A model generated the notes under the pieces. The model was not told where the DNA came from, made no database searches, and was given only the letters and a program-made list of their open reading frames with translations. Shown piece by piece: positions 7,896 to 33,340 of a stretch of DNA of 64,000 nt. A program made the position numbers and the translations under genes. Source of the DNA: Sphingobacteriales bacterium. GTDB lineage: Bacteria; Bacteroidota; Bacteroidia; Chitinophagales; CAIOSU01. How positions within the stretch are numbered: the stretch's first letter is position 1; each line of letters begins with the position of its first letter. The stretch is from assembly GCA_027483645.1 (NCBI GenBank), contig JAIXUD010000009.1, positions 116,814 through 180,813 on the forward strand, read 5' to 3'.

Positions 7896-9032
7896 TCACG
7901 CCTCAGCGGGCCCTTTCGCGGGTATGCTAAAATAAAACGTGGCACCCTTATCCACCTCCGATTCGGCCCATACTTTACCATGATGACGGGCAATGATGCG
8001 GCTTACAATAGCCAAGCCAACACCAGTACCCTCAAACTCCGATGCAGTATGCAACCGCTGGAACACGGTAAAAAGTTTGCTTACAAACCGCATATCAAAG
8101 CCAGCACCGTTGTCTTTTATACAAAAAACTATTTGGCTTCCCTCCACCTGCGCACTTACCGCTACCGCAGGATTCGCTACCTTGCGAGAATACTTCAGTG
8201 CGTTGCCAATCAGATTTTTCAGCACATGCATCATCAGCGATGGATCAGCATAAATAGTAGGCAACTCGCCAATAGTAATCTTTGCATGGTGTTGTAGCTC
8301 CTGCTCAATTTCAGCTAGCGCCCGCTCGGTAAGCAGCTGCATGTCAACAGCCTGCATTTGTACTTCTTTGCGCCCTAGTTTGGAGAAGTTGAGCAAATCA
8401 TTAATTAACTGGCCCATTTGGTAGCCGCTGGCCACTATCCTATCAAGCACCCTCTTGGCATCGGTGCTTAGCATTTCACCATGATCGGTTTCCAGTATCT
8501 TAGCAAAACCTATAATGGTGCGCACTGGTGCCCGCAAATCGTGCGATACGGAAAAACTGAACGACTCCAAGTCCTGGTTTATCTGTTGCAGGTCAGCATT
8601 TTTTTTAGCAAGCGTTATGTTCAGCTCCTCCAATGCCAGTTTTTGCAGGTGCTTTTCAATAAAAAATTTAACCTTATTTATCAATATCTCTGGCTGAAAA
8701 GGCTTGGTGATAAAACTAAAAGCGCCCTTTTCGTATCCTTTAAATATGTTCAAGTGGTCGGTATATACCGCCGAAATGAAAATGAAGGGCAAATCGGCCG
8801 TTCGCTCTTCCTCACGCAAAATACAGGCTAGTTCGTAGCCGTCCATTTCGGGCATCTGCACATCAAGCAAGGCCAAGGCAAAATTGTGATACATGGTGCA
8901 CTTAAGTGCCTCGTTACCGCTGTTTGCCCGCACTAGCTCCACATCTAAATCGCGCAGCACCACTTCCAATGCCAATAGATTTTGGGGTTTATCATCTACT
9001 ATCAAAATTTTGGGCCTGCTCTCCATAGTCAT
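7896..9032 (-). CDS. Receiver-histidine kinase fusion (REC-HisKA-HATPase_c)
   Basis: REC motifs are ILIVDDKPQNL and ALLDVQMPEMDG. The H-box is SHDLRAPV, the N-box GNALKYS, G1 DNGAGF and G2 GTGVGLAIV. It starts 4 nt after the upstream kinase stop. Confidence 0.85.
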   Translation of the reverse strand: MTMESRPKILIVDDKPQNLLALEVVLRDLDVELVRANSGNEALKCTMYHNFALALLDVQMPEMDGYELACILREEERTADLPFIFISAVYTDHLNIFKGYEKGAFSFITKPFQPEILINKVKFFIEKHLQKLALEELNITLAKKNADLQQINQDLESFSFSVSHDLRAPVRTIIGFAKILETDHGEMLSTDAKRVLDRIVASGYQMGQLINDLLNFSKLGRKEVQMQAVDMQLLTERALAEIEQELQHHAKITIGELPTIYADPSLMMHVLKNLIGNALKYSRKVANPAVAVSAQVEGSQIVFCIKDNGAGFDMRFVSKLFTVFQRLHTASEFEGTGVGLAIVSRIIARHHGKVWAESEVDKGATFYFSIPAKGPAEA

Positions 9033-9036
9033 TTTT

Positions 9037-12000
9037 TTACTTGCTCAACCACACGCGCATCAGCGAAAGCAACCTATCCACATCTATTGGTTTCGAGATA
9101 TAATCGTTCGCTCCGGCATCTATACATTTTTGGCGGTCGTCTTTCATCGCTTTCGCAGTAAGTGCCAGCACTGGTAAATTTTTATACTTTATTTGCGCCC
9201 TTATTCGCCTCATCGCTTCATATCCATCCATTTCAGGCATCATAATGTCCATCAATACTATCTGTACATCGGGGGTGTTTTCGAGCGCTTCCAAGGCTTT
9301 TAAGCCATTTTCCGCCTTAGTAACTTCCATACCTCGCTCTTTAAGCACCTTGCTTAGGGCAAATACATTGCGCATATCATCATCCACCACCAACACCTTC
9401 AGCCCTTGAAACACGTTATCCTTATCATACATGCTGGTTATCATATCGCGCTGTTGCTCAGGCAGCTTGTTTATGGTTCTGTGCAGAAACAAGGCCGTTT
9501 CATCTAGCAACCGCTCTTCCGATTTTACGCCTTTAATAATGATGCTTTCTGCATACCGTTCCAGCTCATCATTCTCAGCCCTTGATAGCTCCCTACCTGT
9601 GTATATTATGATGGGCGGGGTGCGGAAATGATCATTTTGCTCCAGTGTATGTATAAAATCGAAACCGCTCATATCGGGCAAGCCAAGGTCAAGCACGATA
9701 CAATCTATTTCGCCATTCTCCAAAATCCTAAGGCCCTCTTCTCCCGATCCGGCTTCCATACACTTTACATCACCGTTGCCAATCAGCTTGCAAATTACCC
9801 GCCTTGCGTTCGGGTCATCCTCTATTATTAGCAGGTTTTTCATTTTGCGGTTAATGAAGTTCTCCATGCGCGCAAAAGCCTCTTCCAGTTGAGCCTTATC
9901 AATAGGTTTGGTCAGGTATTCTACGGCCCCTTCTTTTATGGGGGCTATGGTACGTTCGTTGCCCGACATTATATGTACCGGAACGTGTCTTGTGCTCGGG
10001 TTTGCCTTCAACTCCGCCAATACCCGGTTACCGTCCATCCCCGGTAGGTCAATATCCAGAATAATGGCTTGGGGCTTATACCTTTCAGCCAGCACCAATC
10101 CATCTTCACCTGTGGCGGCTGATATTACTTTGAAGCCTTTTTGCCGTGCTTGGCGGGCTACTACCTTGGCAAAGTTGATGTCGTCTTCAATAATGAGAAT
10201 AAACTTATCACCCTCGGCCAAGTCATTACGATCATCTTCAATACTCGGATAATTTAGGAACTCCTCACTTTTTACAAATACCTTTATAGGTGCCGGTTTG
10301 GCTATTTCTTCGTGCTGATACTGCGGTACTGGCGGCTTAACCGGTAGCAACAACTTAAAGGTAGCGCCCTTGCCCGCTTGGCTCAGCACCGTTATCTCCC
10401 CTCCAAGCAATTCGGCCAGCTTGCGCGATATTGAGAGGCCCAAACCCGTGCCACCATATCTGCGGGCGGTGCCGCCCTCAGCCTGTTGGAATGCCTCAAA
10501 AATCCATCCCTGTTTTTCAATCGGTATGCCTATGCCAGTATCACTAACGCTTATTGCTATATGATCAATGCCTTCCCTATGGATACTGAGGGTTACATTT
10601 CCATGCTCGGTAAACTTGATGGCATTGCTCAGCAGGTTCTTTACAATTTGGTCAATGCGCTGGGTATCAGTACTTAAAGTGTTTGGCAAGTTGTCACCCA
10701 GGCTCACTACAAGTTGCAACGCCTTTGCATCGGTCTGGTGGCGGAAGTTTTTGTATACCTGTTGAGACCAGTTTTTGAGGTTCAGGTCTTCTAGGTTCAA
10801 GGTCATTTTACCAGCTTCAATTTTGCTCAGGTCCAGCACTTCATTAATAAGGTTCAGCAAGTCAATGCCGCTTTTGTTTATTATCTCGGCACTTTCAACC
10901 TGGTCATCAGTAAGGTTTTTACCTTTGTTGTCGGCTAAGTCTTTACTCAAAATCAATAAGCTATTGAGGGGGGTGCGAAGCTCGTGGCTCATGTTCGCCA
11001 AAAACTCCGATTTGTATTGGCTACTCTGCTCAAGTTGGTTGCTCTTTTGCTCTACCGCATGGCGCGCCGCTTCCACCTCATTATTCTTGGCCTCTAGCAA
11101 CTGGGTTTGTTCTTCTAGCTCTTCATTGGTTACTTGTAGCTCTTCTTGTTGCTGCCGTAGGTTTTGGGTGTACTCCTCCAGCTCTTCGTTCAATTGGCGC
11201 AACTCTTCTTGCTGGCTTTGCAGCTCCTCACTTTGGCGCTGGGTTTCTTCAATCAAATGGAGTATACGCTTGCGCGAAAGTGCTGAGTTGAGGCTGATGG
11301 CAATGCTTTCCATGCTGTTCGCCACAAAATCATGCTCGGCAGTCGTAATTGGTTGCAGCCTACCTATCTCCAACACTCCTAATGTTTCACCTTCAAACAT
11401 AAAAGGAGCAACAACCACATTAGCTGGCACAGCGTCCACCAGTGCAGAACGCACTTTGATGTGAGCTGCTTCAACACCCTCCAGCAACTGAATCTTTTGG
11501 TCGGCGGCGGCTTGCCCTACGGCACCTTCGCCCATTACAATGGTTTTTGGCAACCCACTTTGCCCGGAAAGACCATATTGGCCCGATAACTCCAAGTCGC
11601 TACTTACATCCATCTTTAGGTAAATGGCACCTACCTGCGCCTCCAGATAATTTGTTAAGAATTTAATGGTGTTGCTGGCCAGCTCTTCAATACCTTGGTC
11701 GCCTCGCAACACTTCATTTAGTCGGTTTTGGCCGGTGGTAAGCCAGTTCTGCTTTTCGTTTTGCTCGGTGGTTTCGCGCAGCGATTGAGTCATGCCCTTT
11801 ATCGCATTCCCCAAAGTATCCTTTAATGAGCGGGGCTGGAAATCGGTATTGTAATTACCGGCAGCCACTAAACCGGCGTTCTCAGATACTTCGCTAAAAC
11901 TTTGAGCTATATCGGTAAGTGCCAGCGATACCTGATTTAGTTCATCTTTATGTTCATCATAAAAATCTTCTGCCACATGTTCTCGGCTGGCAATCTTTCG

Positions 12001-12663
12001 AGCTACCAATGAAATAACCGCTATTCGGGTGGATATGCTTTTAATAATCCAGAAGGCTATGCCCCCTGCAAAAATAAGTGCCCCAAGTATCAATATTATA
12101 ATAATTCGAACCGAATTGGCGTACTCTTCTTGGTTCACTACCCTATCTGCCTCCATATCAGCAGCGTTTCGAGCCACCAGCTCTTCAACCAAACTAGTAG
12201 CTGCTTGCCTTCCTTTAAGGCCGTCTAAAATCGATATCTGTGTCGCTTTTTCATAATTACCAGCTATTGAAAGGGCTATAATTTGGGTTAATGCTTTACG
12301 ATAATTGCCCCAAGTTACTCGGAAATCCTTAATCAACTTTCTTCCTTCAATCGTGGCAACTTCATCTAGTTCTATTAACATGGAATCAAGCGCTGCAATG
12401 TTAGCATCAATTACATTTTGATAAACCTCCCTACTTGCTGAGTCTTTAACGAGGATAATGTTCTTCTCATCCCTAGTTAAATTAAGCATGGTGATGGTTA
12501 TCTTGTTACACAGCAGCAACCTTTTGGAAGAGTTATCCACCATATTCACTAATCGCTCATTGCTATCTGCCAGCTTGGTGACGGTAAATAATGTGGCTGA
12601 AACCAAAATCAGGAATATAAAGGCAAACCCTAATAACAACTTTGCTCTAATCGTCAAATTCAT
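9037..12663 (-). CDS. Hybrid sensor histidine kinase: TM-bounded helical sensor (4HB_MCP-like), HAMP-like linker, GAF, E/Q-rich coiled coil, HisKA, HATPase_c and three receiver domains
   Basis: The H-box is MSHELRTPLN (His codon 10984-10986). The N-box is LLSNAIKFT, G1 DTGIGI and G2 GGTGLGLSIS. The three REC domains carry DIDLPGMDG, DLGLPDMSG and DIMMPEMDG. The N-terminus (MNLTIRAKLLLGFAFIFLIL...) plus a second TM (IIIILILGALIFAGGIAFWII) encloses a ~170-aa helical periplasmic region. Confidence 0.85.
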   Translation of the reverse strand: MNLTIRAKLLLGFAFIFLILVSATLFTVTKLADSNERLVNMVDNSSKRLLLCNKITITMLNLTRDEKNIILVKDSASREVYQNVIDANIAALDSMLIELDEVATIEGRKLIKDFRVTWGNYRKALTQIIALSIAGNYEKATQISILDGLKGRQAATSLVEELVARNAADMEADRVVNQEEYANSVRIIIILILGALIFAGGIAFWIIKSISTRIAVISLVARKIASREHVAEDFYDEHKDELNQVSLALTDIAQSFSEVSENAGLVAAGNYNTDFQPRSLKDTLGNAIKGMTQSLRETTEQNEKQNWLTTGQNRLNEVLRGDQGIEELASNTIKFLTNYLEAQVGAIYLKMDVSSDLELSGQYGLSGQSGLPKTIVMGEGAVGQAAADQKIQLLEGVEAAHIKVRSALVDAVPANVVVAPFMFEGETLGVLEIGRLQPITTAEHDFVANSMESIAISLNSALSRKRILHLIEETQRQSEELQSQQEELRQLNEELEEYTQNLRQQQEELQVTNEELEEQTQLLEAKNNEVEAARHAVEQKSNQLEQSSQYKSEFLANMSHELRTPLNSLLILSKDLADNKGKNLTDDQVESAEIINKSGIDLLNLINEVLDLSKIEAGKMTLNLEDLNLKNWSQQVYKNFRHQTDAKALQLVVSLGDNLPNTLSTDTQRIDQIVKNLLSNAIKFTEHGNVTLSIHREGIDHIAISVSDTGIGIPIEKQGWIFEAFQQAEGGTARRYGGTGLGLSISRKLAELLGGEITVLSQAGKGATFKLLLPVKPPVPQYQHEEIAKPAPIKVFVKSEEFLNYPSIEDDRNDLAEGDKFILIIEDDINFAKVVARQARQKGFKVISAATGEDGLVLAERYKPQAIILDIDLPGMDGNRVLAELKANPSTRHVPVHIMSGNERTIAPIKEGAVEYLTKPIDKAQLEEAFARMENFINRKMKNLLIIEDDPNARRVICKLIGNGDVKCMEAGSGEEGLRILENGEIDCIVLDLGLPDMSGFDFIHTLEQNDHFRTPPIIIYTGRELSRAENDELERYAESIIIKGVKSEERLLDETALFLHRTINKLPEQQRDMITSMYDKDNVFQGLKVLVVDDDMRNVFALSKVLKERGMEVTKAENGLKALEALENTPDVQIVLMDIMMPEMDGYEAMRRIRAQIKYKNLPVLALTAKAMKDDRQKCIDAGANDYISKPIDVDRLLSLMRVWLSK

Positions 12664-12679
12664 ATAGTATTATATTAAG

Positions 12680-13243
12680 CTATTCACTTAGCTGTATGAG
12701 TAAATCTACAATTTTTTCTATAGAAAGTACATGTGTAGTTTTCGTTGCTGCAATGGCATATTTCGGCATCGTTGCAGCCTCAGCCGTTTCAGGGTCTTGT
12801 ACTACTGGCAACCCACCACAATCTTGTATATTTTTAAGCCCCTGTGCCCCATCATGGTTGGCTCCAGTAAGCACTATCCCAATTAGCTGGTGCCTGAAAG
12901 CATCGGCTGCCGAATCGAACAACACATCTACCGAAGGGCGCGCATAATTAACCTTAGCATCAGCCGACAAAGAAAAGGTGCGATTTTTCTCTATAAGTAA
13001 ATGGTAATTTGCTGGGGCCACGTATACATAGCCCGGCAAGGCCAACTCTTTTTCCTCGGCCTCCTTTACAGTGAGGGCGGTCATATTATTGAGCATAGAA
13101 ACCCATAAGCTATCAGAGGTGGCGCCAATATGCTGCACCACTATTATGGGCAAAGGAAAACTGGCAGGCAAAGGGCCCAATATTCGCTTCAAGGCAGAAA
13201 GCCCACCCATAGAAACGCCTATCACCACGGCCTCATAGTTCAT
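12680..13243 (-). CDS. cheB: CheB-type protein-glutamate methylesterase, catalytic domain only (no receiver)
   Basis: It has the GVSMGG serine motif, VVQH, and a GANHDGAQGL block. I prefer the ATG at 13243 (MNYEAVVIGVSMGG). The longer ORF to 13321 would overlap cheR by 56 nt. Confidence 0.8.
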   Translation of the reverse strand: MNYEAVVIGVSMGGLSALKRILGPLPASFPLPIIVVQHIGATSDSLWVSMLNNMTALTVKEAEEKELALPGYVYVAPANYHLLIEKNRTFSLSADAKVNYARPSVDVLFDSAADAFRHQLIGIVLTGANHDGAQGLKNIQDCGGLPVVQDPETAEAATMPKYAIAATKTTHVLSIEKIVDLLIQLSE

Positions 13244-13265
13244 ACACAATCCTTGTTTTGCTATG

Positions 13266-14087
13266 CTAATACCTCTTCTTAAAAATTCGCTGTTTCTTGT
13301 CAATTTCAGTATACTTTTCATGCACGTCGCCCACCCTAATCCCTTCTTTAGAGCCGAGGCACAGTATACCGCCAGTTATCAAACTATCATGAAACAGTTG
13401 GTGCACCTTAGTCTGCAAATCAACATTGAAGTAAATGAGTACATTACGGCAAAGCAACAAATGCACTTCAGCAAATACCCCATCCGTTACCAGATTGTGT
13501 TGCGCCCATACAATATTCCGCTTTAGCGATTGGTGCATAATAACACTATTGTACTGTGACGTATAGTATTTAGAGAAGTCTTCCTTGCCACCACCTTTAA
13601 GGTAGTTGCCGGTGTATTCTTTTATTTGCTCAATACTATAAATGCCATTTTTTGCTTGGTCGAGCGCGGTTTGGTTGAAATCAGTGGCATAAATGGTAGC
13701 CCGGTCATACAAGCCCTCCTCTTGCAACACTATGGCCATGGAGTATGCCTCTTGACCAGTTGAACAGCCGGCGTGCCATATTTTAATAAACGAATACGTT
13801 TTGAGCATTGGGATAACCTGGGTGCGCAATACGGAGTAGAAATCAGGGTCGCGGAACATTTCGGTTACGGTTATGGAAAGGTCCTGCAGAAGCATTGCTG
13901 CAAAGCCCGCATCTTTAATAGTGCGTTCTTGCAGCTCGGTAACTGTTTTAATGTGCGAGAGTGCCATACGGTGCTTTACCCGCCGCATCAAGTGCGCCTC
14001 CGAGTAGTCGCGGAAATCAAAACCGTATAGCTGGTAAACCGTATCCAGCAAGGGCCGTATCTCCATATCCGTAAACAAAACACCCAT
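13266..14087 (-). CDS. cheR: CheR-type protein-glutamate O-methyltransferase
   Basis: The N-terminal helical CheR_N pattern is GFDFRDYSEAHLMRRV. The SAM-binding block is IWHAGCSTGQEAYSMAI. A CRNVLIYF motif is also present. Confidence 0.85.
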   Translation of the reverse strand: MGVLFTDMEIRPLLDTVYQLYGFDFRDYSEAHLMRRVKHRMALSHIKTVTELQERTIKDAGFAAMLLQDLSITVTEMFRDPDFYSVLRTQVIPMLKTYSFIKIWHAGCSTGQEAYSMAIVLQEEGLYDRATIYATDFNQTALDQAKNGIYSIEQIKEYTGNYLKGGGKEDFSKYYTSQYNSVIMHQSLKRNIVWAQHNLVTDGVFAEVHLLLCRNVLIYFNVDLQTKVHQLFHDSLITGGILCLGSKEGIRVGDVHEKYTEIDKKQRIFKKRY

Positions 14088-14179
14088 ATTACACTTAATT
14101 GCTACAATGAAAATGCATTTTAAAAATTAACCTTTTTTTTGACAAAGTGCCGTTATAGGTAGGCTGATTATACCAAACC

Positions 14180-15712
14180 CTATACCACTAATCTCTTTTG
14201 GTAAATTTCTGCAAAAGGTTTCTTTTTTAAATGTGCCTGAGCCCAAATGCCGAAGTCAAAATAATTGAAAGCACGCTGTTCATTGGGCAGTTTTCGAAGT
14301 TCTTCCGTTCGTACTAAAAATGCACGGAACAAGGCATCGTGAATGTGCCGCTCTTCTACAAAGTTAATCTTTCGCAAAAATGTGATTACCTGCCGTTCTG
14401 TTTCAAATAGTTGCTGTCGCTGCTTTTGGTATCGGTATACCGACTCAACCAGCGATTCCAATAAGCGGTAGTGGCCTGCCTCGTAATGCACTATTAGGCT
14501 TAGCAACCTGGCGAAGCCTTGTATCTCTTGCACGGCACTTTGGTCGGTCTCGTTTATTATCCAAGCTAGCCTATCAAGCGCCTCGGTCCACCTACTGTTG
14601 CCGAACGATAGATAGGCCAATAGGTATTGAAACACAATTTGGTTGTGTAGCACTACTTGCCCAGTGTAGCGTTTCAGCCCCACATCAACCTCGGCAGCCA
14701 ACCTTTGTGCATCTTCAAACTTGCCTGATGCAAGCGCCAGGTTAAGCTCAAGTTGGTAACCCAGCCTAAAAACATTCACCTCCAAACGAGGAATTTTCTT
14801 AAAAGCTGCATCCACCGCCAAGCCCCTTAACTTCTTCAATCCATCCCTTACTTGCTCTTGGTGGCCGAGTATTTGGCTATCTACCAAATAGTTGTTGAGG
14901 ATAGAGAAGTACCGTTCGGCATAAGATTTTATCAGCCCGTTTTGCTCAATCAATTGCAACAAACGGCCATTGTATTCATACGCCTTAGCTGCATCACCTT
15001 TCATAAAGTGGGCTGTGGCAGTGGCATTCAGCACATCCATCTGCGTTCGCATTGGCAGCCCATCCAGCTTGGGCAATTGTACCAGCAAACTATCAATAAC
15101 TGCCACATCAGCCACCGACCGGCCGCCCACCTTGCGGTAGTGCAACATACTTATGCGCTCTGCCTGTTGCCTCACTTGGGCTGCTTGGTACATCTGCGTC
15201 AGTGCCTTTTCTTCTTCGTTGCCTAGCTGTTCTAATTGTTCTGGGGCAATGCCTTGGTAATATTGCTTACCCCACAGCTTGTGTACCAGCTTATAGTACT
15301 CTGGCCAAAGCTCCAGCAATTCCTCTTTCTCAATCAGCTTACGTTGCTTCTTTAGTTGCTTGTCTGCCTGGGCATATAGGCCTTTATTGAGCAATATTTC
15401 TGACTGGTGCAGTGCCATGCGCACCTGTTCTTTGGTATCTGTACCAGCATGGTACAAGTGCAGGGCTTGCAGTAGTTGGTGGTAGAGTTGTTGCTTGATT
15501 ACGGCAAAGTGCAGCGGGTTGCCGTGGGCGGCCCACTTAGCCTTTAGGCTAGCCTCATCATAAGCATCTTGTTGAAGTATTAAGTTGAACAGCAGCCAAT
15601 AGTTGTTGCCTTCGCCTATCACGTGGCGGCGCGAGTGCAATTGAAAAAACCGCTGCTCGGTGCCCGTAAGCGATTTTACCAATTCAAAAATTTCTTGAGA
15701 AGGGGCCCGCAC
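14180..15712 (-). CDS. Hypothetical all-helical (TPR-like) cytoplasmic protein, 510 aa, GTG start
   Basis: It is a long uninterrupted ORF with no TM or signal peptide and repeated amphipathic helix pairs. It is co-oriented 92 nt upstream of cheR. I recognised no family. Confidence 0.6.
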   Translation of the reverse strand: MRAPSQEIFELVKSLTGTEQRFFQLHSRRHVIGEGNNYWLLFNLILQQDAYDEASLKAKWAAHGNPLHFAVIKQQLYHQLLQALHLYHAGTDTKEQVRMALHQSEILLNKGLYAQADKQLKKQRKLIEKEELLELWPEYYKLVHKLWGKQYYQGIAPEQLEQLGNEEEKALTQMYQAAQVRQQAERISMLHYRKVGGRSVADVAVIDSLLVQLPKLDGLPMRTQMDVLNATATAHFMKGDAAKAYEYNGRLLQLIEQNGLIKSYAERYFSILNNYLVDSQILGHQEQVRDGLKKLRGLAVDAAFKKIPRLEVNVFRLGYQLELNLALASGKFEDAQRLAAEVDVGLKRYTGQVVLHNQIVFQYLLAYLSFGNSRWTEALDRLAWIINETDQSAVQEIQGFARLLSLIVHYEAGHYRLLESLVESVYRYQKQRQQLFETERQVITFLRKINFVEERHIHDALFRAFLVRTEELRKLPNEQRAFNYFDFGIWAQAHLKKKPFAEIYQKRLVV

Positions 15713-21287: not shown

Positions 21288-22250
21288 TCACAATCTATTC
21301 AGTATCGCTTTGAGCCAATTGTATACGTTGTATCTGCCAACAAAAAGCCACTTACCCAACAGTGAAGCTGGCACCCTTCTATTTGTGACACGCCATACGT
21401 ACTCCGCTTGCGCTACATTAACAGGTGCGGTTTTATCAAGAGGGTCTTTAGGTAATCCGCTTTCTATTTCAAAGCCAACATGGTAACGCAACATTGTGTT
21501 AATGGGTGGTGGGCTTAGTGGCTGTCCATCATGTAATATTACCTCAAACAGGGATAGTTGCAAAGCAAAATGCGTACCGGCATATCCTTTGTTGGTAGTA
21601 AAAGATACCTTGGGATAAACAAAGTACAACTGTTTCTCCAATAAATACTGTACACAAAGTTTCTTCCACGACTGTTTGCCCCAGCGCTGTACATAAACAG
21701 GCAAAAGTTGGTTATCAGCCTGTGAATGGCTTTTCAACCAAGCTTCAAAGCCTTGCCATTGTTTGGCCGTCCATGCTTGCCCCCATGAGGAGGGAAATTG
21801 CATTAAGTAAGCATCCAACCCATCAAGGTACGGTGCAAATGGATAGTAATCGCTTTCTTTAATCTGGTAGCTATATAGGGAGATACCAGCTATAAGTGCT
21901 TCATTTTCATAGGCCTTAAGGGTATCCACCGAAAATTGATAGAAACCTCTTGCCACCTCCAAATCATCTTCTAGCAAAATGATACTACCATATTGCGCTG
22001 TAAGCCCACCACACTCTAGTATATGCGCTTTGAGGCCTAGCCTTGTTGGATGCTTAATTATGGTTTTTTCGCCATAAGGCCATAGTAACTGCTCTGCTAT
22101 TGCAATTACAGCAGCATGGCCTCCCCCATCTATGGATATCACCAGCCGGGCGCTGCCCAAATACTCAGCACTCAGCAAGCTATCCAGCAAGCCTTGCAAG
22201 GCATGTGGCCTATCCCATGCTGCGATAACTATAGTTGGCTGGTTTTTCAT
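21288..22250 (-). CDS. GT-A fold glycosyltransferase resembling the GnT-I (GT13) family
   Basis: The N-terminus is PTIVIAAWDRPHALQGLLDSL. The EDD metal-binding motif sits in ILLEDDLEVARGFYQF (codons 21963-21971), which closely resembles the EDDLEVAPDFF block of animal GnT-I. Its start overlaps the asnB-like stop by 4 nt. Confidence 0.6.
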   Translation of the reverse strand: MKNQPTIVIAAWDRPHALQGLLDSLLSAEYLGSARLVISIDGGGHAAVIAIAEQLLWPYGEKTIIKHPTRLGLKAHILECGGLTAQYGSIILLEDDLEVARGFYQFSVDTLKAYENEALIAGISLYSYQIKESDYYPFAPYLDGLDAYLMQFPSSWGQAWTAKQWQGFEAWLKSHSQADNQLLPVYVQRWGKQSWKKLCVQYLLEKQLYFVYPKVSFTTNKGYAGTHFALQLSLFEVILHDGQPLSPPPINTMLRYHVGFEIESGLPKDPLDKTAPVNVAQAEYVWRVTNRRVPASLLGKWLFVGRYNVYNWLKAILNRL

Positions 22251-24091
22251 GGTTTTTGGGCAGCTCTTTTAAAGAAATGTTCGTGCCAGAGGTATGGTGA
22301 GAGTGCCAGCCATGCTTGCTCGGCATCTTCGTTGGTGGCGATTGGGTTGACCCATAGCTTTTCCAGTTTTTGCTTGGCGATTAGATTGTCAGTTAAATCA
22401 AATTGTGAAAAGCTTTGAGAAGCAATAGTATCTTGCAAAAACGTCTTCCAAGGTCCTCGCAGCCAATCTGCCAAAGGAGCTTGAAAACCAATTTTATCTT
22501 TGCGCTCCACAATACTTTTGGGCAGCCACGGTTGCACCGCAGCGCGCAGCAGTGCTTTGCTATAGCCATTGCGTATCTTGCTCTCCCAAGGTACGGAAAA
22601 GCTAAAAGCGACAAGCTCAGGATCTAAAAACGGCATGCGTATTTCCACCCCCGAGCGCATGGAGAACCTATCGTAATTGCGCAACAGCGTGGGGAATATA
22701 GTGTAATGGAACAACCTGTACAGGGCATAATTATAGTACCCCATCTTGCGGATGGCCTCTCCGTGTAGTTGCTCATCGTGCTTTGTACCAGGTAGCTTTT
22801 CATCAAGCCATTGCTCCTTTATGCGATGGGCCTGCATGAACAAATACCGATGGTTTCCAGTTTTTCGGGCTTTGATGATGCCCCTATCTGGTTGCTGGCC
22901 CTCGTAAGTCTGCAAGATGTCCTTCCACTTACCCGGGTCCAAGCCAGCATCAATCATAGCCAGTAGCATAAAATTGCCATACCCGCTAAACATTTCATCA
23001 GGCCCATGGCCATCCACACTTACATACACCTGCTGCTGTCGATAATGGCGGTACAGCTCCATCATGGGTGATGGCGGTGTGCGAAATATCTCTTCAAAAT
23101 GGTACAAATCGTCGGGTAGCTTCTGTAGTGCGGTTGCCGCATCCAGTGCCACCTCGTGCAGTGGCACCTGTTTTTCGGTAGCCAATAGGCGGGCATACTG
23201 GCTTTCATCTACCCTGCTATTGAGGAACGTGGCCGTGAATGCCTTGCTTAGCCTATCCCCTCCCTGAAGCGCACAAGCTGCGCCCAACACTGCCGACGAA
23301 TCCAAACCTCCACTAATGGCTGCGCCAACCGGCACATCGGCCCGCAAAGTAAGGCCTACCGACTTGGCAAATAACGTTCGGTATTGCACCGCTTGCTCCT
23401 GAAAGGAAGCCGGAGCGTTTACCAAATGTTCCAATGTATCCCAGTATTGCTTCAAGCTTAGTTGCCCGTCCTTAAAAACTCCATAATGCCCAGCGGGGAA
23501 GCGTTTGATGCCTTCTACTAGCGTATCGGCAACGCTTTCATAGCTGTCATATCGCTTCAGCAGTTTCTTCAATTGATGGCTAGGTTGCCAACCATCAGCT
23601 AAAGCCATTAAAGCCTTCATCTCAGACCCAAAGGTAAACGGCCCATGTGCTTGCGAGTAAAACAGGGGCTTCTCGCCAAACCTATCTCGAGCTAAAAAGA
23701 GGGTTTTGTCGTCTTCGTTCCATATCGCGAATGCCCACATCCCCTTAAACTTCAAAAGGCACTGCTTATGCCATTGACGGTAAGCCGCCAGTAGTACTTC
23801 CGTATCGCATTCGGTACGGAAGGTGTGGCCGAAACCCTCAAGCTCTGTTCGCAGCTCACGGTAATTGTATATCTCTCCGTTGAAGGTAATGGTGAGGTTG
23901 CCCAAAGCCATGGGCTGCGCCGCTTCTGGTTTAAGGTCGATAATGGACAACCGTCGATGGCCAAGGGTGACATACTGGCTTGGGTGTTCCCAAATACCTT
24001 CCCCATCAGGCCCGCGGTGGGCCAGCCGGTCAAGCGCCGAGTGAAATCGGCCCCGGTCTATGGATGGTATTATACCCAATATGCCGCACAT
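22247..24091 (-). CDS. asnB: Asparagine synthase (glutamine-hydrolysing) family amidotransferase
   Basis: MCGILGI provides the Cys2 nucleophile of the class II amidotransferase domain. SGGLDSS is the PP-loop. At 614 aa and embedded in a glycan operon, it suggests amidation of a sugar carboxylate rather than Asn synthesis. Confidence 0.85.
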   Translation of the reverse strand: MCGILGIIPSIDRGRFHSALDRLAHRGPDGEGIWEHPSQYVTLGHRRLSIIDLKPEAAQPMALGNLTITFNGEIYNYRELRTELEGFGHTFRTECDTEVLLAAYRQWHKQCLLKFKGMWAFAIWNEDDKTLFLARDRFGEKPLFYSQAHGPFTFGSEMKALMALADGWQPSHQLKKLLKRYDSYESVADTLVEGIKRFPAGHYGVFKDGQLSLKQYWDTLEHLVNAPASFQEQAVQYRTLFAKSVGLTLRADVPVGAAISGGLDSSAVLGAACALQGGDRLSKAFTATFLNSRVDESQYARLLATEKQVPLHEVALDAATALQKLPDDLYHFEEIFRTPPSPMMELYRHYRQQQVYVSVDGHGPDEMFSGYGNFMLLAMIDAGLDPGKWKDILQTYEGQQPDRGIIKARKTGNHRYLFMQAHRIKEQWLDEKLPGTKHDEQLHGEAIRKMGYYNYALYRLFHYTIFPTLLRNYDRFSMRSGVEIRMPFLDPELVAFSFSVPWESKIRNGYSKALLRAAVQPWLPKSIVERKDKIGFQAPLADWLRGPWKTFLQDTIASQSFSQFDLTDNLIAKQKLEKLWVNPIATNEDAEQAWLALSPYLWHEHFFKRAAQKP

Positions 24092-24093
24092 GC

Positions 24094-25191
24094 TTACTCT
24101 GGCTTTAGATGTTTTTCGATTTGCTCCGTTAATATGCGGATATTCTTATCCAATGAGAAATGTTCGGTTATCCTTTTCATGGCGGCAAGGCCCATTTCCT
24201 TGCTCAATTGGGCATCCAGCAGCAGTTTGGTAATGTAACTTGCCATACCATCCACATCTCCCTCGGCCACTAGGTATCCTGTTATACCATCCTCCACAAT
24301 CTCTGGTATGCCAGCATGCAGGGTGCTCACCACGGGCACTCCGCAAGCCCCTGCCTCCATAATAGCCACGGGTGTACCTTCGGTTTCACCATCAGTAGTG
24401 GTCATGGAATGTTGAACAAATACTTGTGCCATTTCCATTTCTTGCGAAACCTGCATCGGCGTAAGCACCCCTAAAAAATGGATGCGGTCGGTCAATTGTA
24501 ATTGCTCCACTTGCCGCTTACAATCAGCCAGCAGCTCCCCTGCCCCACCCATGCGCAAGATGGCATTGGGTATGGTTTCTAACACCTTGGCAAACGCCTT
24601 AATTACCAAATCCGGTCGTTTGGTATTGGCAAACCGGCCGATGGATAATACAATGTGCTCAGTACTGCTACGCTCATGGTATTTAAACAAATTTAAATCG
24701 ACACCGCACGGATTTAATACTAGCTTAGGGTCAGGAGCGCCCCATTCAAAGAGTTTCTTTTTCATGGGCTTTGACACTACAAAAATACTTGAAGCATAAT
24801 CAAACAACTCTTTGTATTTCAATTGATATTGACTCAAAACATCTGCCCGAGTAGCATCAAACCCATGGAAGTAAACCAAAAGCGGAATACCCGCCCGTTT
24901 ACAAACCCGTAGCCAATGTACCCCTACGGGGCCGTACTCTGCCAACACTAGCTTAATGTTCTGTTTGCGGATGGTATCAACCCATTTGTCTTCCAGCCAT
25001 TTGGTGCCGAAGTAAGGCAAGCGGGCTATGAAGCTTGGTAAAAGCATTTTTTGATTAAGCCCATACCCCAAGTATGCACCCCAAGCATAGCTTACCGTAT
25101 AGGGCAAATGCGCCACGTGCTGCCTAATAAAGGTTTCCGAAAACGCTCGCCTGTGAACAGAGGCGACTATAATATGGTTTTGTTGACTCAG
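24094..25191 (-). CDS. GT4-family (GT-B fold) glycosyltransferase; start codon unresolved
   Basis: The C-terminal E-x7-E block is EGTPVAIMEAGACGVPVVSTLHAGIPEIVEDGITGYLV. The N-terminal conserved block is HIIVASVHRRAFSETFI. There is no ATG, GTG or TTG between 25048 and 25316. The 5' limit given here is a CTG codon, and the true start is uncertain. Confidence 0.7.
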   Translation of the reverse strand: MSQQNHIIVASVHRRAFSETFIRQHVAHLPYTVSYAWGAYLGYGLNQKMLLPSFIARLPYFGTKWLEDKWVDTIRKQNIKLVLAEYGPVGVHWLRVCKRAGIPLLVYFHGFDATRADVLSQYQLKYKELFDYASSIFVVSKPMKKKLFEWGAPDPKLVLNPCGVDLNLFKYHERSSTEHIVLSIGRFANTKRPDLVIKAFAKVLETIPNAILRMGGAGELLADCKRQVEQLQLTDRIHFLGVLTPMQVSQEMEMAQVFVQHSMTTTDGETEGTPVAIMEAGACGVPVVSTLHAGIPEIVEDGITGYLVAEGDVDGMASYITKLLLDAQLSKEMGLAAMKRITEHFSLDKNIRILTEQIEKHLKPE

Positions 25192-25224
25192 GGCTGTTGG
25201 ATTGTGGAACCCTGTAAAAATAGG

Positions 25225-25232
25225 TATATTTG
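25225..25232 (+). promoter_or_regulatory. Candidate -7 box TATATTTG for radical SAM gene 1
   Basis: It is a perfect TAnnTTTG, 14 nt upstream of the ATG at 25246. A TTG at 25202-25204 gives a 20-nt spacer. The same octamer recurs upstream of the paralog. Confidence 0.4.
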
Positions 25233-25245
25233 AATGTAATAGCCC

Positions 25246-26844
25246 ATGCTGACGCCTGATATCATAAAAGCCTATAACGCAGTACGTACCGCCGCCGATA
25301 AAAGTGTGCTGTGCCATGCACCGTTTACGAGTATCAACTTCGACCAGTTTGGTAGTATGACGGCCTGTTGCTACAACAAAAAGGAAGTGCTGGGCCGTGT
25401 TCCGCACCAAACGATCAAGGAAGCTTGGCTAAGCCCTACAGCCGAGCAGCTGCGCGCGCGCATGCGAAACAACGATTTGGGTGGGGGCTGCAGCTATTGC
25501 CAAGAACTACTGTTAGCGGGCAATCATCGCGGCACCAAAGCCTACTTTTATGATGAATTTGCCGAGGCACCTGCAACAGGATGGGACAAGGTAATGGCAC
25601 TATTTACCACTAAGAAAGTAGGCTTTCCGAAGGTATTTGAACTAGAGTTAAGCAATACCTGCAACCTAGAGTGCATCATGTGCAATGGGCACTTTTCATC
25701 GAGCATCAAAAAGAACCGAGAGCACCTGCCCGCACAATTGATCCCATATGGACCGGCATTTGTGGACGAGCTGGCCGAGTTTATGCCCTACCTTACCGAT
25801 ATGAAATTTTTGGGTGGAGAGCCTTTTTTGATTGATATTTATTACGACATCTGGGAGCGGATTATTGCTGTAAATCCGAAAATAAAAGTACACATTACTA
25901 CCAATGGCACCGTTCTGAATAACCGTGGTAAAAAGATTTTGGAGCAGTTAAATGTGGCTATTGTGCTTTCAATTGACTCGCTAGATAAAGAGACTTACGA
26001 AGGTATCCGCATCAATGCCAAATACGATAGGCTGATGGAGAACCTAGCCTTCTTTAAAACGCTAGTACAACAGAAGAAGACATATCTCACCTTTACTGTA
26101 TGCCCAATAATACAAAACTGGAAAACCCTTCCGCAATTGCTGCAAGTAGCTAATGAGGATGGCATCAACCTTCACTTTAATACAGTGTGGGCACCCGAAC
26201 AGGTATCTATGCAGTATCTAGATGCGGATACTTTGGCTGAGGTAATTACCTATTTGGAAGCCCACCTGCCCAATAACGTAACTGATCGTAAAGCGGCTAA
26301 CAATATACAGGTGTACCAACAGTACATTGATACTTTGAAGTATTGGCTAGAAGAAAAAAAGCAGCAGCTACCTGACTTAGAGCGCTTTAAGCATGTATCA
26401 CTTAATGCGGAAAACATATTGCCGATATTGCCTGCTGATAGCTTGCTTTCGGCTACCGTGTTATGCTGGTATGCCCAACTAATGCAGCATGGTAAAGGCG
26501 AAAGCTTGGCTGCACAGCTGCCTAATGGCAAAAAAATATTGGAGCTGCTAAGTTTGCCTACAATGCCTGAAGCTATTACCCAATTACGGCTTCAAACAAC
26601 CTCTTGGCAATTTATAATGCAATATATGGAAATGCTGGGCGTACTTGATAAGCTACTGGAGCAAGAAGGAAATGGCCTGTTGCCCCAGCGTATTGCACTG
26701 GTAATGCCCATTTTAATCCGTTCAGCAAAGCAAGACCAAGCCGCTAACGACCTAGCAGTAAATGGAGCGTTTTTACAATTGCGTGTGTTGAAGCAACCAT
26801 CAGAAAAGGCAGTGGTAGACTTGTATGAAAGCCTTTTTGGGTAG
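25246..26844 (+). CDS. Radical SAM enzyme with N-terminal twitch/SPASM-like Cys motif and ~200-aa C-terminal helical extension (paralog 1)
   Basis: The CX3CX2C motif is in ELSNTCNLECIMCNG (Cys139/143/146, nt 25660-25683). Upstream of it are C23-x12-G-x4-C41 and C82-x2-C85. Confidence 0.8.
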   Translation: MLTPDIIKAYNAVRTAADKSVLCHAPFTSINFDQFGSMTACCYNKKEVLGRVPHQTIKEAWLSPTAEQLRARMRNNDLGGGCSYCQELLLAGNHRGTKAYFYDEFAEAPATGWDKVMALFTTKKVGFPKVFELELSNTCNLECIMCNGHFSSSIKKNREHLPAQLIPYGPAFVDELAEFMPYLTDMKFLGGEPFLIDIYYDIWERIIAVNPKIKVHITTNGTVLNNRGKKILEQLNVAIVLSIDSLDKETYEGIRINAKYDRLMENLAFFKTLVQQKKTYLTFTVCPIIQNWKTLPQLLQVANEDGINLHFNTVWAPEQVSMQYLDADTLAEVITYLEAHLPNNVTDRKAANNIQVYQQYIDTLKYWLEEKKQQLPDLERFKHVSLNAENILPILPADSLLSATVLCWYAQLMQHGKGESLAAQLPNGKKILELLSLPTMPEAITQLRLQTTSWQFIMQYMEMLGVLDKLLEQEGNGLLPQRIALVMPILIRSAKQDQAANDLAVNGAFLQLRVLKQPSEKAVVDLYESLFG

Positions 26845-26874
26845 TGCTATTAGAATGCCCACCGCTATTTCCCT

Positions 26875-26882
26875 TATATTTG
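26875..26882 (+). promoter_or_regulatory. Candidate -7 box TATATTTG for radical SAM gene 2
   Basis: It is a perfect TAnnTTTG, 11 nt upstream of the ATG at 26893, in the 48-nt gap after paralog 1. I saw no good -33 element. Confidence 0.3.
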
Positions 26883-26892
26883 ATTACCGAAC

Positions 26893-28497
26893 ATGCTGAC
26901 GCCTGAAATTATAAAAGCATACAACGCAGCCCGCACAACGCCCGACAAAAGCGTACTGTGCCATGCACCCTTTACCAATCTCAACTTTGAGCAAAATGGC
27001 AACGTAACTGCTTGCTGCTACAACCGCAGCCATGTGCTCGGCAGTTATCCTAACAATTCCATTATGGATATTTGGCTTGGACAAAAAGCCGATGAGTTGC
27101 GCCGCTATATACAAAACAACGATTTAGGCGGGGGCTGTATCTTATGCTCATACCAACTTACCAGCGGCAATTTCAACAACTCGCGGGCAAAAGGATATGA
27201 CTATGTGGCCGAAAACAAGGTGGTGCAATACTTCAAAAAGGCACAAGGATACCTTGCCCGGGGAAAATTTATGCAGATGCCCACTTGCTTGGAATTTGAA
27301 CTGAGCAACACCTGCAACCTAGAGTGCGTAATGTGCAACGGCTATTTCTCATCTTCTATACGGAAGAATCGGGAGAACAAAGCCCCAATGGTTAACCCTT
27401 ATGATGATGCTTTTATAGAGCAGCTAAAGCCTTTTATACCTCACTTACTAGATGCCCGGTTTTTGGGTGGCGAGCCGTTTTTGATTGACCAATACTATCA
27501 AATATGGGATGCCTTTGTAGAGCTAAACCCTAAGGCCCGTATACATATTACTACCAATGCCACCATTATGAACCAAAGGGTTAAGACCCTTTTGGATAAG
27601 CTTACCTGCCACATCGTTATTTCCATGGACTCTATTGTGAGGGAGACCTACGAGGCAATACGCTTAAATGCAAAGTTTGACCGCGTGTGGGAGAATTTTA
27701 ACTACCTATACGATTACACCCGCCGCAAGGGCACCCGTATAAATTTTGCCGTATGCCCCATTACCCTAAACTGGCACGAGATGCCCGATTTGGTGAGGTT
27801 CTGTAACGAAAAAGATATTGTGCTGTTTTTCAACACTGTGGTAGTTCCACAAACTTACTCGCTTGAATATCAGCCAGCAAGTGTACTTGAACAAGTAGTG
27901 GCACTTTATGATGCCACCGAGCTACCTGCAGTAACGCAGCGCGAACAATACAACAAACAAATGTTTCTGGACATGGCCAACCAGATAAGGGCTTGGTATG
28001 AACTGGCCCTTAAAGCTGAAAGCAAAAAAGAAGGCCAGGAAAACCAAACCAACCAAGCCATAAACCAAGCACTGGCATCGGGTTTGATATTGCCAGAACA
28101 CCGGGCCGCGCAATACTTGGAGGTGCTGTACGAAATACTTTTCTATGCTCATGGTTTCCCTTACGCAGACGACGAAAAATCGCAAGAAGCGCAATTGATA
28201 GCTACTACGCGCCTGTTTTCGAGCCTTACCAAAATAGCCAAGCAATATGACCAAAACCAATATCTATCGGCCTTATTTGCGGCTTATCGCTATTTGCCAT
28301 TGCTCAACAATAGCCTTAACCCCGCACCCAACCATGCTACAAAGCTAGATGCGCTAATAAAAGAGGCCGGTACCATAGGCAACGCGGAGTGGATAGCCCA
28401 AGATATGAACCATGCAGAGCCGATGAAAGTGCTAAGCCACATGAATGCCCACAGCGCCGAACAACTAATAGGAGGCATGTACCAGCAATATTTTTAA
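26893..28497 (+). CDS. Radical SAM enzyme, paralog 2 of the preceding gene
   Basis: It has the same architecture and the same Cys positions (C23, C41/42, C82, C85; ELSNTCNLECVMCNG). The N-terminal 45 aa are nearly identical to paralog 1, and the C-terminal third is divergent. Confidence 0.8.
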   Translation: MLTPEIIKAYNAARTTPDKSVLCHAPFTNLNFEQNGNVTACCYNRSHVLGSYPNNSIMDIWLGQKADELRRYIQNNDLGGGCILCSYQLTSGNFNNSRAKGYDYVAENKVVQYFKKAQGYLARGKFMQMPTCLEFELSNTCNLECVMCNGYFSSSIRKNRENKAPMVNPYDDAFIEQLKPFIPHLLDARFLGGEPFLIDQYYQIWDAFVELNPKARIHITTNATIMNQRVKTLLDKLTCHIVISMDSIVRETYEAIRLNAKFDRVWENFNYLYDYTRRKGTRINFAVCPITLNWHEMPDLVRFCNEKDIVLFFNTVVVPQTYSLEYQPASVLEQVVALYDATELPAVTQREQYNKQMFLDMANQIRAWYELALKAESKKEGQENQTNQAINQALASGLILPEHRAAQYLEVLYEILFYAHGFPYADDEKSQEAQLIATTRLFSSLTKIAKQYDQNQYLSALFAAYRYLPLLNNSLNPAPNHATKLDALIKEAGTIGNAEWIAQDMNHAEPMKVLSHMNAHSAEQLIGGMYQQYF

Positions 28498-29438
28498 TAG
28501 CTTGAAGGTAAGCGCTTGGTTTGTTCCAGATATAGCAATACTTCGTCGGCAAAAAGATTGGTCATTAATGCACCGGGGTGGTAATTCACCGGATTAGCGC
28601 GAAGATCTAAATCATCATAAGTTGCTAACCGCTCTTGCGAAACAGGAATAAGGTTATAATACTCCAATTGTAACGTATCGAACATTGGTTGCACCTGTAA
28701 GTAATATTTGTCGCAGGTATGCGCCAGGCAAGCAGGGGTTTGCACAATAAAGTAATCCAATCGGTCATTCGCCAACGTGTCTTTAAACTGATGCCAAAGC
28801 TGAGTATACAATACCATATTTTCAGCCCCATACAATCTTTCTTGCCAGCTTGAATAAGAATTTACATAGGCATCAAACAGTACTTTCTCTGCCAAAGCAG
28901 GCCAAATTTTATAAAGAAACCAATAATTATTCCTAAAATCCCAATCCATGTGCTGAAACAGCCCCATATCGCCATCATTATCTACAAAACCCAAAATCAA
29001 CAAGTCAGGCTTATACTTCCTTCCTTCAGTAATGTAAAACTCGAATTCATCCTTCGTTTGCCATCCATTACGGCCCCAGTGCATCACTTCTACATTATCA
29101 TATTTGGCCATTATACGCTGCTCCAACTTATGGCTCCAAGCACTATCATAAGGCAAGCCATCACCCCAAATAAAAGAATCACCCAAAACCGCAATTCTAA
29201 ATACGCCGCTATCTTTTTCTAGTTTTCTAGGGATATCGGTAAACTGGTGTGGGTTTTTGTCGGCAAAAGCTTTATTGGCGAGGTTCAGGCTATCGTTATA
29301 CTTTTGCCAATCGACCAATCCAGAGGCTTCTGGTGCCGGGCCAATGTATATTTTAAGAGCACCATAAATTACCAGCAGCGTAACTATCACTACAATGATT
29401 TTATACCACCTTTTGTGCTTTTTATTATCCGTTGCCAT
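28494..29438 (-). CDS. Membrane-anchored SGNH/GDSL-like hydrolase or acyltransferase
   Basis: It has an N-terminal TM (WYKIIVVIVTLLVIYGAL) and block I IAVLGDSFIWGDG. Its stop codon shares nucleotides with the convergent radical SAM stop. Confidence 0.65.
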   Translation of the reverse strand: MATDNKKHKRWYKIIVVIVTLLVIYGALKIYIGPAPEASGLVDWQKYNDSLNLANKAFADKNPHQFTDIPRKLEKDSGVFRIAVLGDSFIWGDGLPYDSAWSHKLEQRIMAKYDNVEVMHWGRNGWQTKDEFEFYITEGRKYKPDLLILGFVDNDGDMGLFQHMDWDFRNNYWFLYKIWPALAEKVLFDAYVNSYSSWQERLYGAENMVLYTQLWHQFKDTLANDRLDYFIVQTPACLAHTCDKYYLQVQPMFDTLQLEYYNLIPVSQERLATYDDLDLRANPVNYHPGALMTNLFADEVLLYLEQTKRLPSSY

Positions 29439-29442
29439 AGGC

Positions 29443-30489
29443 TTAGTTATTATTATTTAAAGTACCACTAGCCTTAAAATACTTATACATTGCCTCTCCC
29501 CAAGCATTATATCCACGGTCATTCATGTGTCCATCAATAGGCCAAAAATACCCTTTCATATTGTACTTCATTTCGCTTGGTAAAATATCCATTAATCGCA
29601 CATAATGCAAACCATTTACTTCCATATACTCCATTAGGCTATCAGCATGTGGTTCATAGTAACCTTGCTGCAACTCGTATCCCATCGGTTGAAAAATAAA
29701 TAGAGCCTCTGCCCCCACAGCTTGACTGAGCGAGTCTATTTTGGCAAACAATTCTTTGTACTTCGGTATTGCCTCCATTTGCAGCCTATCATACTCTCCG
29801 GCCGATTGGTAATAATCATTATACTGCAATACTTCCTTTACTAAAAAGCGCATCAAATGGCTCCACTTAAATGCTGTATGCAAAACCTGGTTAACTGGCC
29901 TCCATTGGGTAACGGAATCATTAATAAAGCGCTCCAATCCGCCTCTTAATGCATAGTCATTTATGTCGGTATGGTTATATACCTGTATTACCACATCAGG
30001 TTGATAGGCGAAAAATTGCCTACGAAGCATCTCGTATGAGTAAAAAGGGTCGCAGCCTGATACTGCCCCCACAACTATCTCCCATTGCTGATTAATGCCG
30101 TCGGTTTGCAAATACCAAGCCATACGTTGGTGCCAAGTAGAGTCGAACGGAACGCCTACCCCTTCGGTAAAAGAATCACCCAGTACCAGTAAGCGCTTTG
30201 CACCAGCAGGTTTGATAATAGTATGTTCCACATCGCGTATACCTAGGCTGTTAGTGGTAACTTCGTAAGTAAACTCTTTGGCTATCTGTATTACAGTGGA
30301 ATCTGCCGTCCAAGCACATAATGGGCCTTTATATGGCGGCTTAAAATAATCGATAAACATGCCATTGGTGCGTTCACCATAACTTTTGTAGTCGCCTTTT
30401 ATCCTCAACGCAATTTCAGCCAACAATATAAACAAGGCCAAATTGAACAGCACCAAAAACCATAATGATCGATACCACTTATTAGCCAT
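29443..30489 (-). CDS. Membrane-anchored SGNH/GDSL-like hydrolase or acyltransferase (second copy)
   Basis: It has an N-terminal TM (LWFLVLFNLALFILLAEIAL) and block I LLVLGDSFTEGVG. A late DGHMN block is consistent with the SGNH catalytic D-x-x-H. Confidence 0.65.
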   Translation of the reverse strand: MANKWYRSLWFLVLFNLALFILLAEIALRIKGDYKSYGERTNGMFIDYFKPPYKGPLCAWTADSTVIQIAKEFTYEVTTNSLGIRDVEHTIIKPAGAKRLLVLGDSFTEGVGVPFDSTWHQRMAWYLQTDGINQQWEIVVGAVSGCDPFYSYEMLRRQFFAYQPDVVIQVYNHTDINDYALRGGLERFINDSVTQWRPVNQVLHTAFKWSHLMRFLVKEVLQYNDYYQSAGEYDRLQMEAIPKYKELFAKIDSLSQAVGAEALFIFQPMGYELQQGYYEPHADSLMEYMEVNGLHYVRLMDILPSEMKYNMKGYFWPIDGHMNDRGYNAWGEAMYKYFKASGTLNNNN

Positions 30490-33305: not shown

Positions 33306-33340
33306 TAAACTTTGTTGGATAATAATTTTTTTAATGGTAA

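Follow-up and report, generated by a model that had tools for sequence, protein, structure and literature searches.

A 64,000-nucleotide (nt) stretch of a Sphingobacteriales genome (contig JAIXUD010000009.1, positions 116,814 to 180,813; hereafter the window) encodes on its minus strand a CheR-type methyltransferase, a receiver-less CheB, a hybrid sensor histidine kinase of 1208 amino acids (aa) and a 378-aa kinase with receiver (REC), HisKA and HATPase domains. We propose, with a probability of roughly 0.7, that the four constitute a single operon for a two-component kinase of the RsbK/RsbM-CfcA type that is modulated by methylation. Homology to the Bacillus RsbK/RsbM pair and a conserved gene neighbourhood strongly support the signalling helix (S-helix) of the large kinase as the substrate of CheR/CheB. 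The initial annotation of this DNA had already cast the kinase as the methyl acceptor, an idea that is right in substance yet not new: S-helix methylation has been shown for RsbK, and contrary to the initial statement that no split arrangement had been dissected biochemically, methylation of RsbK by RsbM in vitro and the accompanying genetics were published in 2012 and 2015.

In B. cereus, RsbM, a CheR-type enzyme of the same operon, methylates the kinase RsbK (layout CHASE3-HAMP-GAF-S-helix-HK-REC) on its signalling helix. Purified RsbM with 14C-labelled S-adenosylmethionine (SAM) labels RsbK, the label maps to the S-helix, and methylation is required to hold sigma-B off and strengthens the contact between receiver and S-helix (PMC4574943). 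The same study counted 127 RsbK-like kinases in 10 phyla, and an earlier genomic survey is cited in PMC12848376 as having noted the association of RsbK with CheR. A complete rsbV-rsbW-sigB-rsbY / rsbK-rsbM cluster is present in NZ_CP093325.1 (Bacillus sp. N5-665, 'plasmid p1'), a nearly unannotated 5.5-Mb record, evidently of a chromosome despite its filing among plasmids, and the RsbK encoded there (896 aa) carries His505 and Asp827 as published.

Both window proteins resemble their Bacillus counterparts at a level suggestive of orthology. CheR is 50% identical to B. cereus-type RsbM over 266 ungapped aa (285 bits), compared with 112 bits to the B. subtilis chemotaxis CheR (5FTW), with which its SAM-binding motifs align, and 56-62 bits to other solved CheRs. 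These scores point to an RsbM clade far from chemotaxis CheR, here encoded in a cassette with the kinase at spacings of 16-22 nt. The kinase is 35% identical to RsbK over 659 aa, from GAF to receiver, and its Glu-Glu-Leu (EEL) heptads run in register with RsbK 431-460 save for one heptad-length gap. E487 and E494 fall opposite E439 and E446 of RsbK, reportedly the methylation sites of Chen et al. 2012; in the Bacillus protein, these two residues are each the second Glu of an EEL unit, and the two units are consecutive. The H-box matches that of RsbK (SKYKSEFLANMSHELRTP), and the last receiver (Asp1139) shares 50% identity with RsbK's inhibitory receiver (Asp827).

The deviations from RsbK lie at the ends of the protein and in the surrounding genes. 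In RsbK, the sensor is CHASE3, a single receiver is present and the EEL heptads number four, whereas the window kinase has a 4HB_MCP_1 sensor, two extra receivers (three in all), five EEL units at aa 479-516 upstream of the H-box, and a HAMP match that is sub-threshold. B. cereus RsbM is an orphan with no paired esterase, while the window CheR has CheB beside it. RsbK output runs through the PP2C regulator RsbY and sigma-B; in the window, no SpoIIE/PP2C, STAS or anti-sigma kinase domain was found in open reading frames (ORFs) of at least 150 aa, and the sole sigma factor, of the extracytoplasmic function type (2309-2803), lies ~5 kb from the cassette.

A further likeness is to the Pseudomonas cfcABCDE and BmsA clusters, which have been studied genetically (PMC4951495, PMC8175716). 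In P. putida, cfcABCDE opens with the gene for the CHASE3/GAF hybrid kinase CfcA; the cluster's CheR/CheB pair, CfcB and CfcC, is reported to play no role in chemotaxis, and a receiver is present in CfcD (PMC4951495); in a related Pseudomonas genome, the orthologous kinase adjoins CheR, CheB and a hybrid kinase (PMC8175716). The window shares with cfcABCDE and P. alkylphenolica BmsA the set of GAF hybrid kinase, CheR, CheB and receiver-containing kinase or regulator, together with the H-box ANMSHEL, a likeness drawn from published descriptions of the Pseudomonas clusters rather than from direct comparison with the CfcA sequence. The cfc system differs in its CHASE3 sensor, its kinase-first gene order and its output through the GGDEF/EAL regulator CfcR, whereas the window kinase has a 4HB_MCP sensor and neither a GGDEF/EAL domain nor a CfcR counterpart is encoded in the window. 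The similarity of its CheR, its kinase and its gene set thus places the window system in the RsbK/RsbM-cfc family, from whose studied members it differs in four respects: its sensor, its gene order, the esterase that B. cereus lacks, and the absence of the known outputs RsbY/sigma-B or CfcR.

In the Pfam architecture of the 1208-aa kinase, HisKA (aa 551-618), HATPase_c (aa 666-776) and three Response_reg stretches follow the GAF domain, and two hydrophobic transmembrane (TM) segments (aa 9-29 and 187-207) flank the four-helix-bundle module. The layout that the initial annotation had read from the sequence, a TM-bounded 4HB_MCP-like sensor followed by a HAMP-like linker, GAF, HisKA/HATPase and three receivers, thus stood, except that the HAMP-like linker is weakly supported. 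No match to MCPsignal, the signalling domain of methyl-accepting chemotaxis proteins (MCPs), appeared in the kinase even at E<=10. We also considered a CheA-less Che-like pathway in which the kinase would be an MCP analogue through an MCPsignal remnant, and rejected it because this similarity is absent.

Between GAF and the H-box, the helix reads SEELQSQ QEELRQL NEELEEY TQNLRQQ QEELQVT NEELEEQ, so that EE pairs precede a core Leu at 7-residue spacing (E479/480, E486/487, E493/494, E507/508 and E514/515). Across 64 CheR-linked kinases, Leu recurs at every seventh position over ten heptads, with no stutter, into the DHp helix; EE stands at 479/480 and at 507/508 in no fewer than 90% of the sequences, and at three further heptads in no fewer than 70%. 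A single-sequence AlphaFold model of aa 301-781 had low overall confidence (mean predicted local distance difference test score, pLDDT, 43), and from it we used only the long helix, predicted to be continuous from aa 441 to 578 with local pLDDT of ~60-87. As a possible line of evidence, we also considered whether EE pairs are kept only beside cheR; in 10 kinases compared, the CheR-linked ones had 2-5 EEL units and the unlinked ones 1-2, and this argument was dropped, since the two groups do not separate cleanly.

Variants of the helix were seen in other lineages. CheR-linked kinases of Flavobacterium (locus L003, 11427-15203; locus L042, 2714-6274) have, immediately ahead of the EEL helix, 3-7 tandem 21-aa units (EKEKRAAELGIANKELAYQND), each of which extends the coiled coil by exactly three heptads. 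Poly-HAMP kinases of 1780-1960 aa with the same S-helix and H-box occur on Azospirillum, Novosphingobium and Mesorhizobium plasmids (L084, L088, L091); a response regulator follows each of them, no cheR is present, and L084 and L088 additionally have a small hypothetical gene and two DUF5985 genes. These three loci place the same kinase core in another conserved gene context.

To follow the gene neighbourhood across genomes, we collected relatives of the window CheR, which is unusually conserved: relatives in 80 genomes are 55-73% identical, across Bacteroidota, Ignavibacteria, Leptospira, Clostridium and Desulfosporosinus, the best named ones being from Chitinophaga and Chitinophagaceae metagenome-assembled genomes (71-73%). 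Linkage was scored in loci of this clade from Bacteroidota, Leptospira and Firmicutes, 48 of which had full flanks. A receiver-less cheB adjoins cheR in 47 of the 48, and 45 encode an EE-heptad kinase (at least two heptad-spaced EE[L] pairs before the H-box), within 300 nt in 40 of these 45; the motif is absent from the 71 other histidine kinases of those loci. Gene order is cheR-cheB-kinase in most Bacteroidota and Leptospira, and kinase-cheR-cheB in Bacteroidales and Firmicutes. Conservation of the neighbourhood, which the initial annotation had suggested examining, thus proved extensive, and CheR/CheB beside multi-receiver kinases have been remarked on in several phyla (PMC5108060).

The sensor is not what stays constant in these loci. 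CHASE3 is the sensor of 27 of the 63 linked kinases and 4HB_MCP_1 that of 25, with dCache or PAS in a few, whereas the GAF-helix-DHp module remains ~50% identical and matches 2,872 clusters (50% identity) at E<=1e-30. By this comparison, the constant GAF/S-helix/DHp module, not the variable sensor, is what accompanies CheR/CheB. In plasmid clusters of Rhizorhabdus wittichii and Rhizobium sp. BG4, the same four genes are annotated, including one of the REC-kinase type, with CheR, CheB and kinase 43-51% identical to those of the window; the CheR/CheB-linked alphaproteobacterial kinases align with aa 295-1208 of the window kinase at 43-44% identity, GAF and all three receivers included. In a tblastn search of plasmids, the helix was masked as low-complexity sequence and matches were confined to the DHp side; the search served mainly to locate annotated neighbourhoods and the misfiled Bacillus chromosome with rsbK-rsbM. 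The four-gene cassette is also 53-65% identical between Bacteroidota and pathogenic Leptospira (alstonii, alexanderi, interrogans and noguchii; L058, L059, L065, L070), a likeness that suggests horizontal transfer of the unit.

The EE helix also occurs with a second kind of CheR and CheB. Fused CheB-CheR-PAS kinases, whose existence in databases the initial annotation had mentioned, carry seven consecutive xEE[LIF]xxxN heptads directly after the CheR domain, and so likewise tie an EE[LIF] heptad coiled coil to CheB and CheR. They form a separate clade, whose identity to the CheR and CheB of the window is only 31% and 37%, with the coil between the CheR and PAS domains, whereas the window coil lies between GAF and DHp and the window genes are separate, with stop codons and 16-22 nt spacers between them. 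Fused (cis) and split (trans) clades both have the EE helix; two independent CheR/CheB lineages are therefore tied to the same kind of helix. In Flavobacterium, a fused gene follows the split cassette about two genes further downstream (L003, 17964-20825; also L007, L010, L013, L020, L025, L030, L033 and L055).

Classical chemoreceptor adaptation uses the same enzyme families and heptad-spaced Glu-Glu pairs on a dimeric coiled coil beside a HAMP-type relay. It differs in acting on the MCP hairpin with CheA/CheW and a CheB that has a receiver; none of these is encoded in the window, where the helix is predicted to feed a DHp/CA kinase directly. A Pfam scan of all 45 window ORFs of at least 150 aa found no MCPsignal, CheW, Hpt or CheA-type domain, in agreement with the absence of CheA, CheW and MCPs from the 64 kb that had been noted at the outset. 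A regular-expression search for the MCP hairpin tip likewise returned nothing in 83 loci or the window, a result of little weight, as the search had no working positive control.

The two modifying enzymes appear intact and, as initially described, are a CheR and a CheB consisting of the catalytic domain only. The longest cheB ORF extends to 13321, into cheR; public contigs have the gene begin at the ATG at 13243 (MNYEAVV...). Alignment to Thermotoga maritima CheB (3SFT) shows that the catalytic Ser, His and Asp motifs are kept (GVSMGG, VVQHI, TGANHDG).

The fourth gene resembles LvrB-type kinases of Leptospira in its REC-helix-HisKA-HATPase layout, in which receiver phosphorylation turns the kinase on (PMC13269768). 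Full-length relatives (at least 300 aa aligned, ORF <480 aa) were found in 27 related loci; in ~19 of these, the relative lies immediately downstream of the hybrid kinase at 46-72% identity, with Leptospira copies at 58-61%. The best NCBIfam match of the 378-aa protein is the REC-kinase part of LvrA, at 266 bits against a family cut-off of 1200, and unlike the Leptospira LvrB systems, the window has no LvrC-type effector that we could see. We therefore do not claim membership of the LvrB family, and a relay to the 378-aa kinase is suggested by architecture-level analogy with LvrB.

The coordinates of the cassette are collected in the table below. All four genes are co-oriented, as initially reported, with successive spacers of 22, 16 and 4 nt, and the cassette ends 15 nt from a convergent efflux gene. 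The operon probably starts at the promoter-like site upstream of cheR, the best sigma-70-like match on the cassette strand; it is no more than a match to the consensus, and promoters of Bacteroidota follow another one. Directly upstream of cheR lies a 510-aa gene (14180-15712, minus strand) with no Pfam match and a sub-threshold NCBIfam match to BT2802 (136 bits against a cut-off of 550). It is not conserved beside the cassette in the loci of other genomes, its sole match (L002) being another contig of the window sequence.

Table. Genes, domains and predicted sites of the CheR/CheB-kinase cassette (positions in the window)
Feature	Position	Strand	Basis
cheR, protein-glutamate O-methyltransferase, RsbM clade, 273 aa	13266..14087	-	Pfam CheR_N + CheR, E 1.8e-37
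cheB, receiver-less glutamate methylesterase/deamidase, 187 aa	12680..13243	-	Pfam CheB_methylest only, E 1.7e-56
Hybrid sensor histidine kinase, 1208 aa, 4HB_MCP-TM-HAMP-like-GAF-S-helix-HisKA-HATPase-REC x3	9037..12663	-	Pfam
REC-HisKA-HATPase kinase, 378 aa, Asp57, His164	7896..9032	-	Pfam
Sigma-70-like promoter match, ~30 nt upstream of cheR	14117..14145	-	TTGTCA-17-TAAAAT, 10/12 consensus matches
Periplasmic four-helix-bundle sensor, aa 2-167	12163..12660	-	Pfam 4HB_MCP_1, E 3e-16
HAMP-like linker, aa 208-254	11902..12042	-	Pfam HAMP, E=0.019, 15.7 bits, under the Pfam cut-off
GAF domain, aa 324-458	11290..11694	-	Pfam GAF_2/GAF
Signalling helix, proposed methyl-accepting segment, aa 466-550	11014..11268	-	Sequence and conservation
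Predicted phospho-acceptor His560 in H-box FLANMSHELRTP	10984..10986	-	Sequence; H-box common to RsbK His505 and a CfcA primer (ANMSHEL)
Three receivers, Asp870, Asp992, Asp1139	9055..10206	-	Pfam and RsbK alignment

These features suggest how the system could work. The four-helix-bundle domain would sense a periplasmic signal, with GAF possibly binding a cytoplasmic ligand, and the signal would travel down one long dimeric coiled coil, the S-helix, straight into the DHp helix that bears His560. Because the helix would present its Glu-Glu pairs just before the core Leu of successive heptads, the dedicated CheR could methylate these glutamates, the second Glu of each pair being the likeliest site. 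Methylation would neutralise charge and alter coiled-coil packing, and so shift kinase and phosphotransfer output, along with the control that the C-terminal receiver exerts on it. The receiver-less CheB would strip the methyl groups, making the mark reversible, and may deamidate conserved Gln residues adjoining the EE pairs. Since CheB has no receiver, feedback would have to come from conformation-dependent availability of the substrate and not from CheB phosphorylation. Phosphate would pass via the receivers of the kinase to the receiver-controlled 378-aa kinase and then to an output encoded outside the cluster. In this scheme, we infer the exact sites, the sign of the effect, the action of CheB as esterase or deamidase on the kinase, the relay to the 378-aa kinase and adaptation itself.

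Several observations weigh against methylation of the S-helix as the function of the cassette. One or two EEL copies persist in related Novosphingobium, Mesorhizobium and Streptomyces kinases with no cheR within ~9 kb; the motif alone is therefore no proof of methylation. Two Moduliflexus/UASB14-type loci (L078, 11422-15180; L082, 11430-15272) are exceptions to the linkage rule, pairing this CheR/CheB clade with a REC-PAS-GAF-PAS kinase that has no EEL motif. S-helix methylation is known experimentally from B. cereus, outside Bacteroidota, and action of CheB on an S-helix is without precedent because B. cereus has no paired esterase. In P. putida, mutants in other cfc genes reportedly kept the CfcA-dependent phenotype (an unpublished remark in PMC4951495), and modification by CheR/CheB may be only modulatory.

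The enzymes might have substrates other than the S-helix. They could be an orphan adaptation module for MCPs and CheA/CheW encoded elsewhere in the genome, with an incidental position beside the kinases, and the absence of such partners was indeed seen for the 64-kb window only. Type IX secretion system sorting-domain proteins in the window, however, mark the host as a member of the Bacteroidota, which usually lack flagellar chemotaxis. Linkage to the EEL-helix kinase is also kept across phyla, the window CheR clade is far from chemotaxis CheR, and no MCPsignal or CheW recurred in a sample of 130 neighbouring ORFs from 80 loci. Some cassette hosts (Leptospira, Clostridium, Pseudomonas, Bacillus) do have chemotaxis systems, but the P. 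putida CheR/CheB pair is itself reported to play no part in chemotaxis (PMC4951495), and in B. cereus, where RsbM methylates RsbK directly, deletion of the only CheB left the RsbK pathway unaffected (PMC4574943). We consider an orphan chemotaxis module very improbable. Modification of another target within the phosphorelay, such as acidic residues of a receiver, the 378-aa REC-kinase or a partner regulator, is unlikely, though less so: several receivers are always in the cassette, the two exceptional loci pair the enzymes with a REC-PAS kinase, and in Salmonella, CheR is reported to be able to methylate a response regulator, PhoP (PMC8546571). On the other hand, the S-helix is where the modification maps in the one homologue studied (PMC4574943), and the EE-heptad helix travels with CheR/CheB in both split and fused forms.

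If the S-helix is the substrate, the mark could still be set once, as a constitutive maturation by methylation or deamidation, and not serve as a dynamic signal. RsbM works without an esterase, RsbK made together with RsbM is fully methylated (PMC4574943), and the window CheB has no receiver through which its activity could be fed back upon; yet a dedicated esterase beside cheR in nearly every fully flanked locus is hard to explain if the mark is never removed, and we find constitutive maturation rather doubtful. That the paired CheR and receiver-less CheB provide true sensory adaptation in non-flagellated Bacteroidota, a methylation memory on the S-helix that resets output after a step stimulus, is a tentative idea to which we lend slightly more credence, while still short of expecting it. 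The conformation of the substrate helix would then be the sole source of feedback, and Gln beside the EE pairs might be reserve sites deamidated by CheB.

Elsewhere in the window, two adjacent paralogous radical-SAM/SPASM proteins (25246-26844 and 26893-28497, plus strand) lie within a cluster of glycosyltransferase, asparagine synthase, GDSL and UbiA-type genes (21288-33440).

The kinase with a methylatable S-helix is very widespread, its helix very strongly conserved and its sensors interchangeable, and it is usually accompanied by both a methyltransferase and an esterase. With the conserved candidate sites E480, E487, E494, E508 and E515, a simple four-gene system offers a direct test of a question that concerns the family as a whole, namely whether ordinary two-component kinases gain a chemotaxis-like adaptation through reversible methylation.

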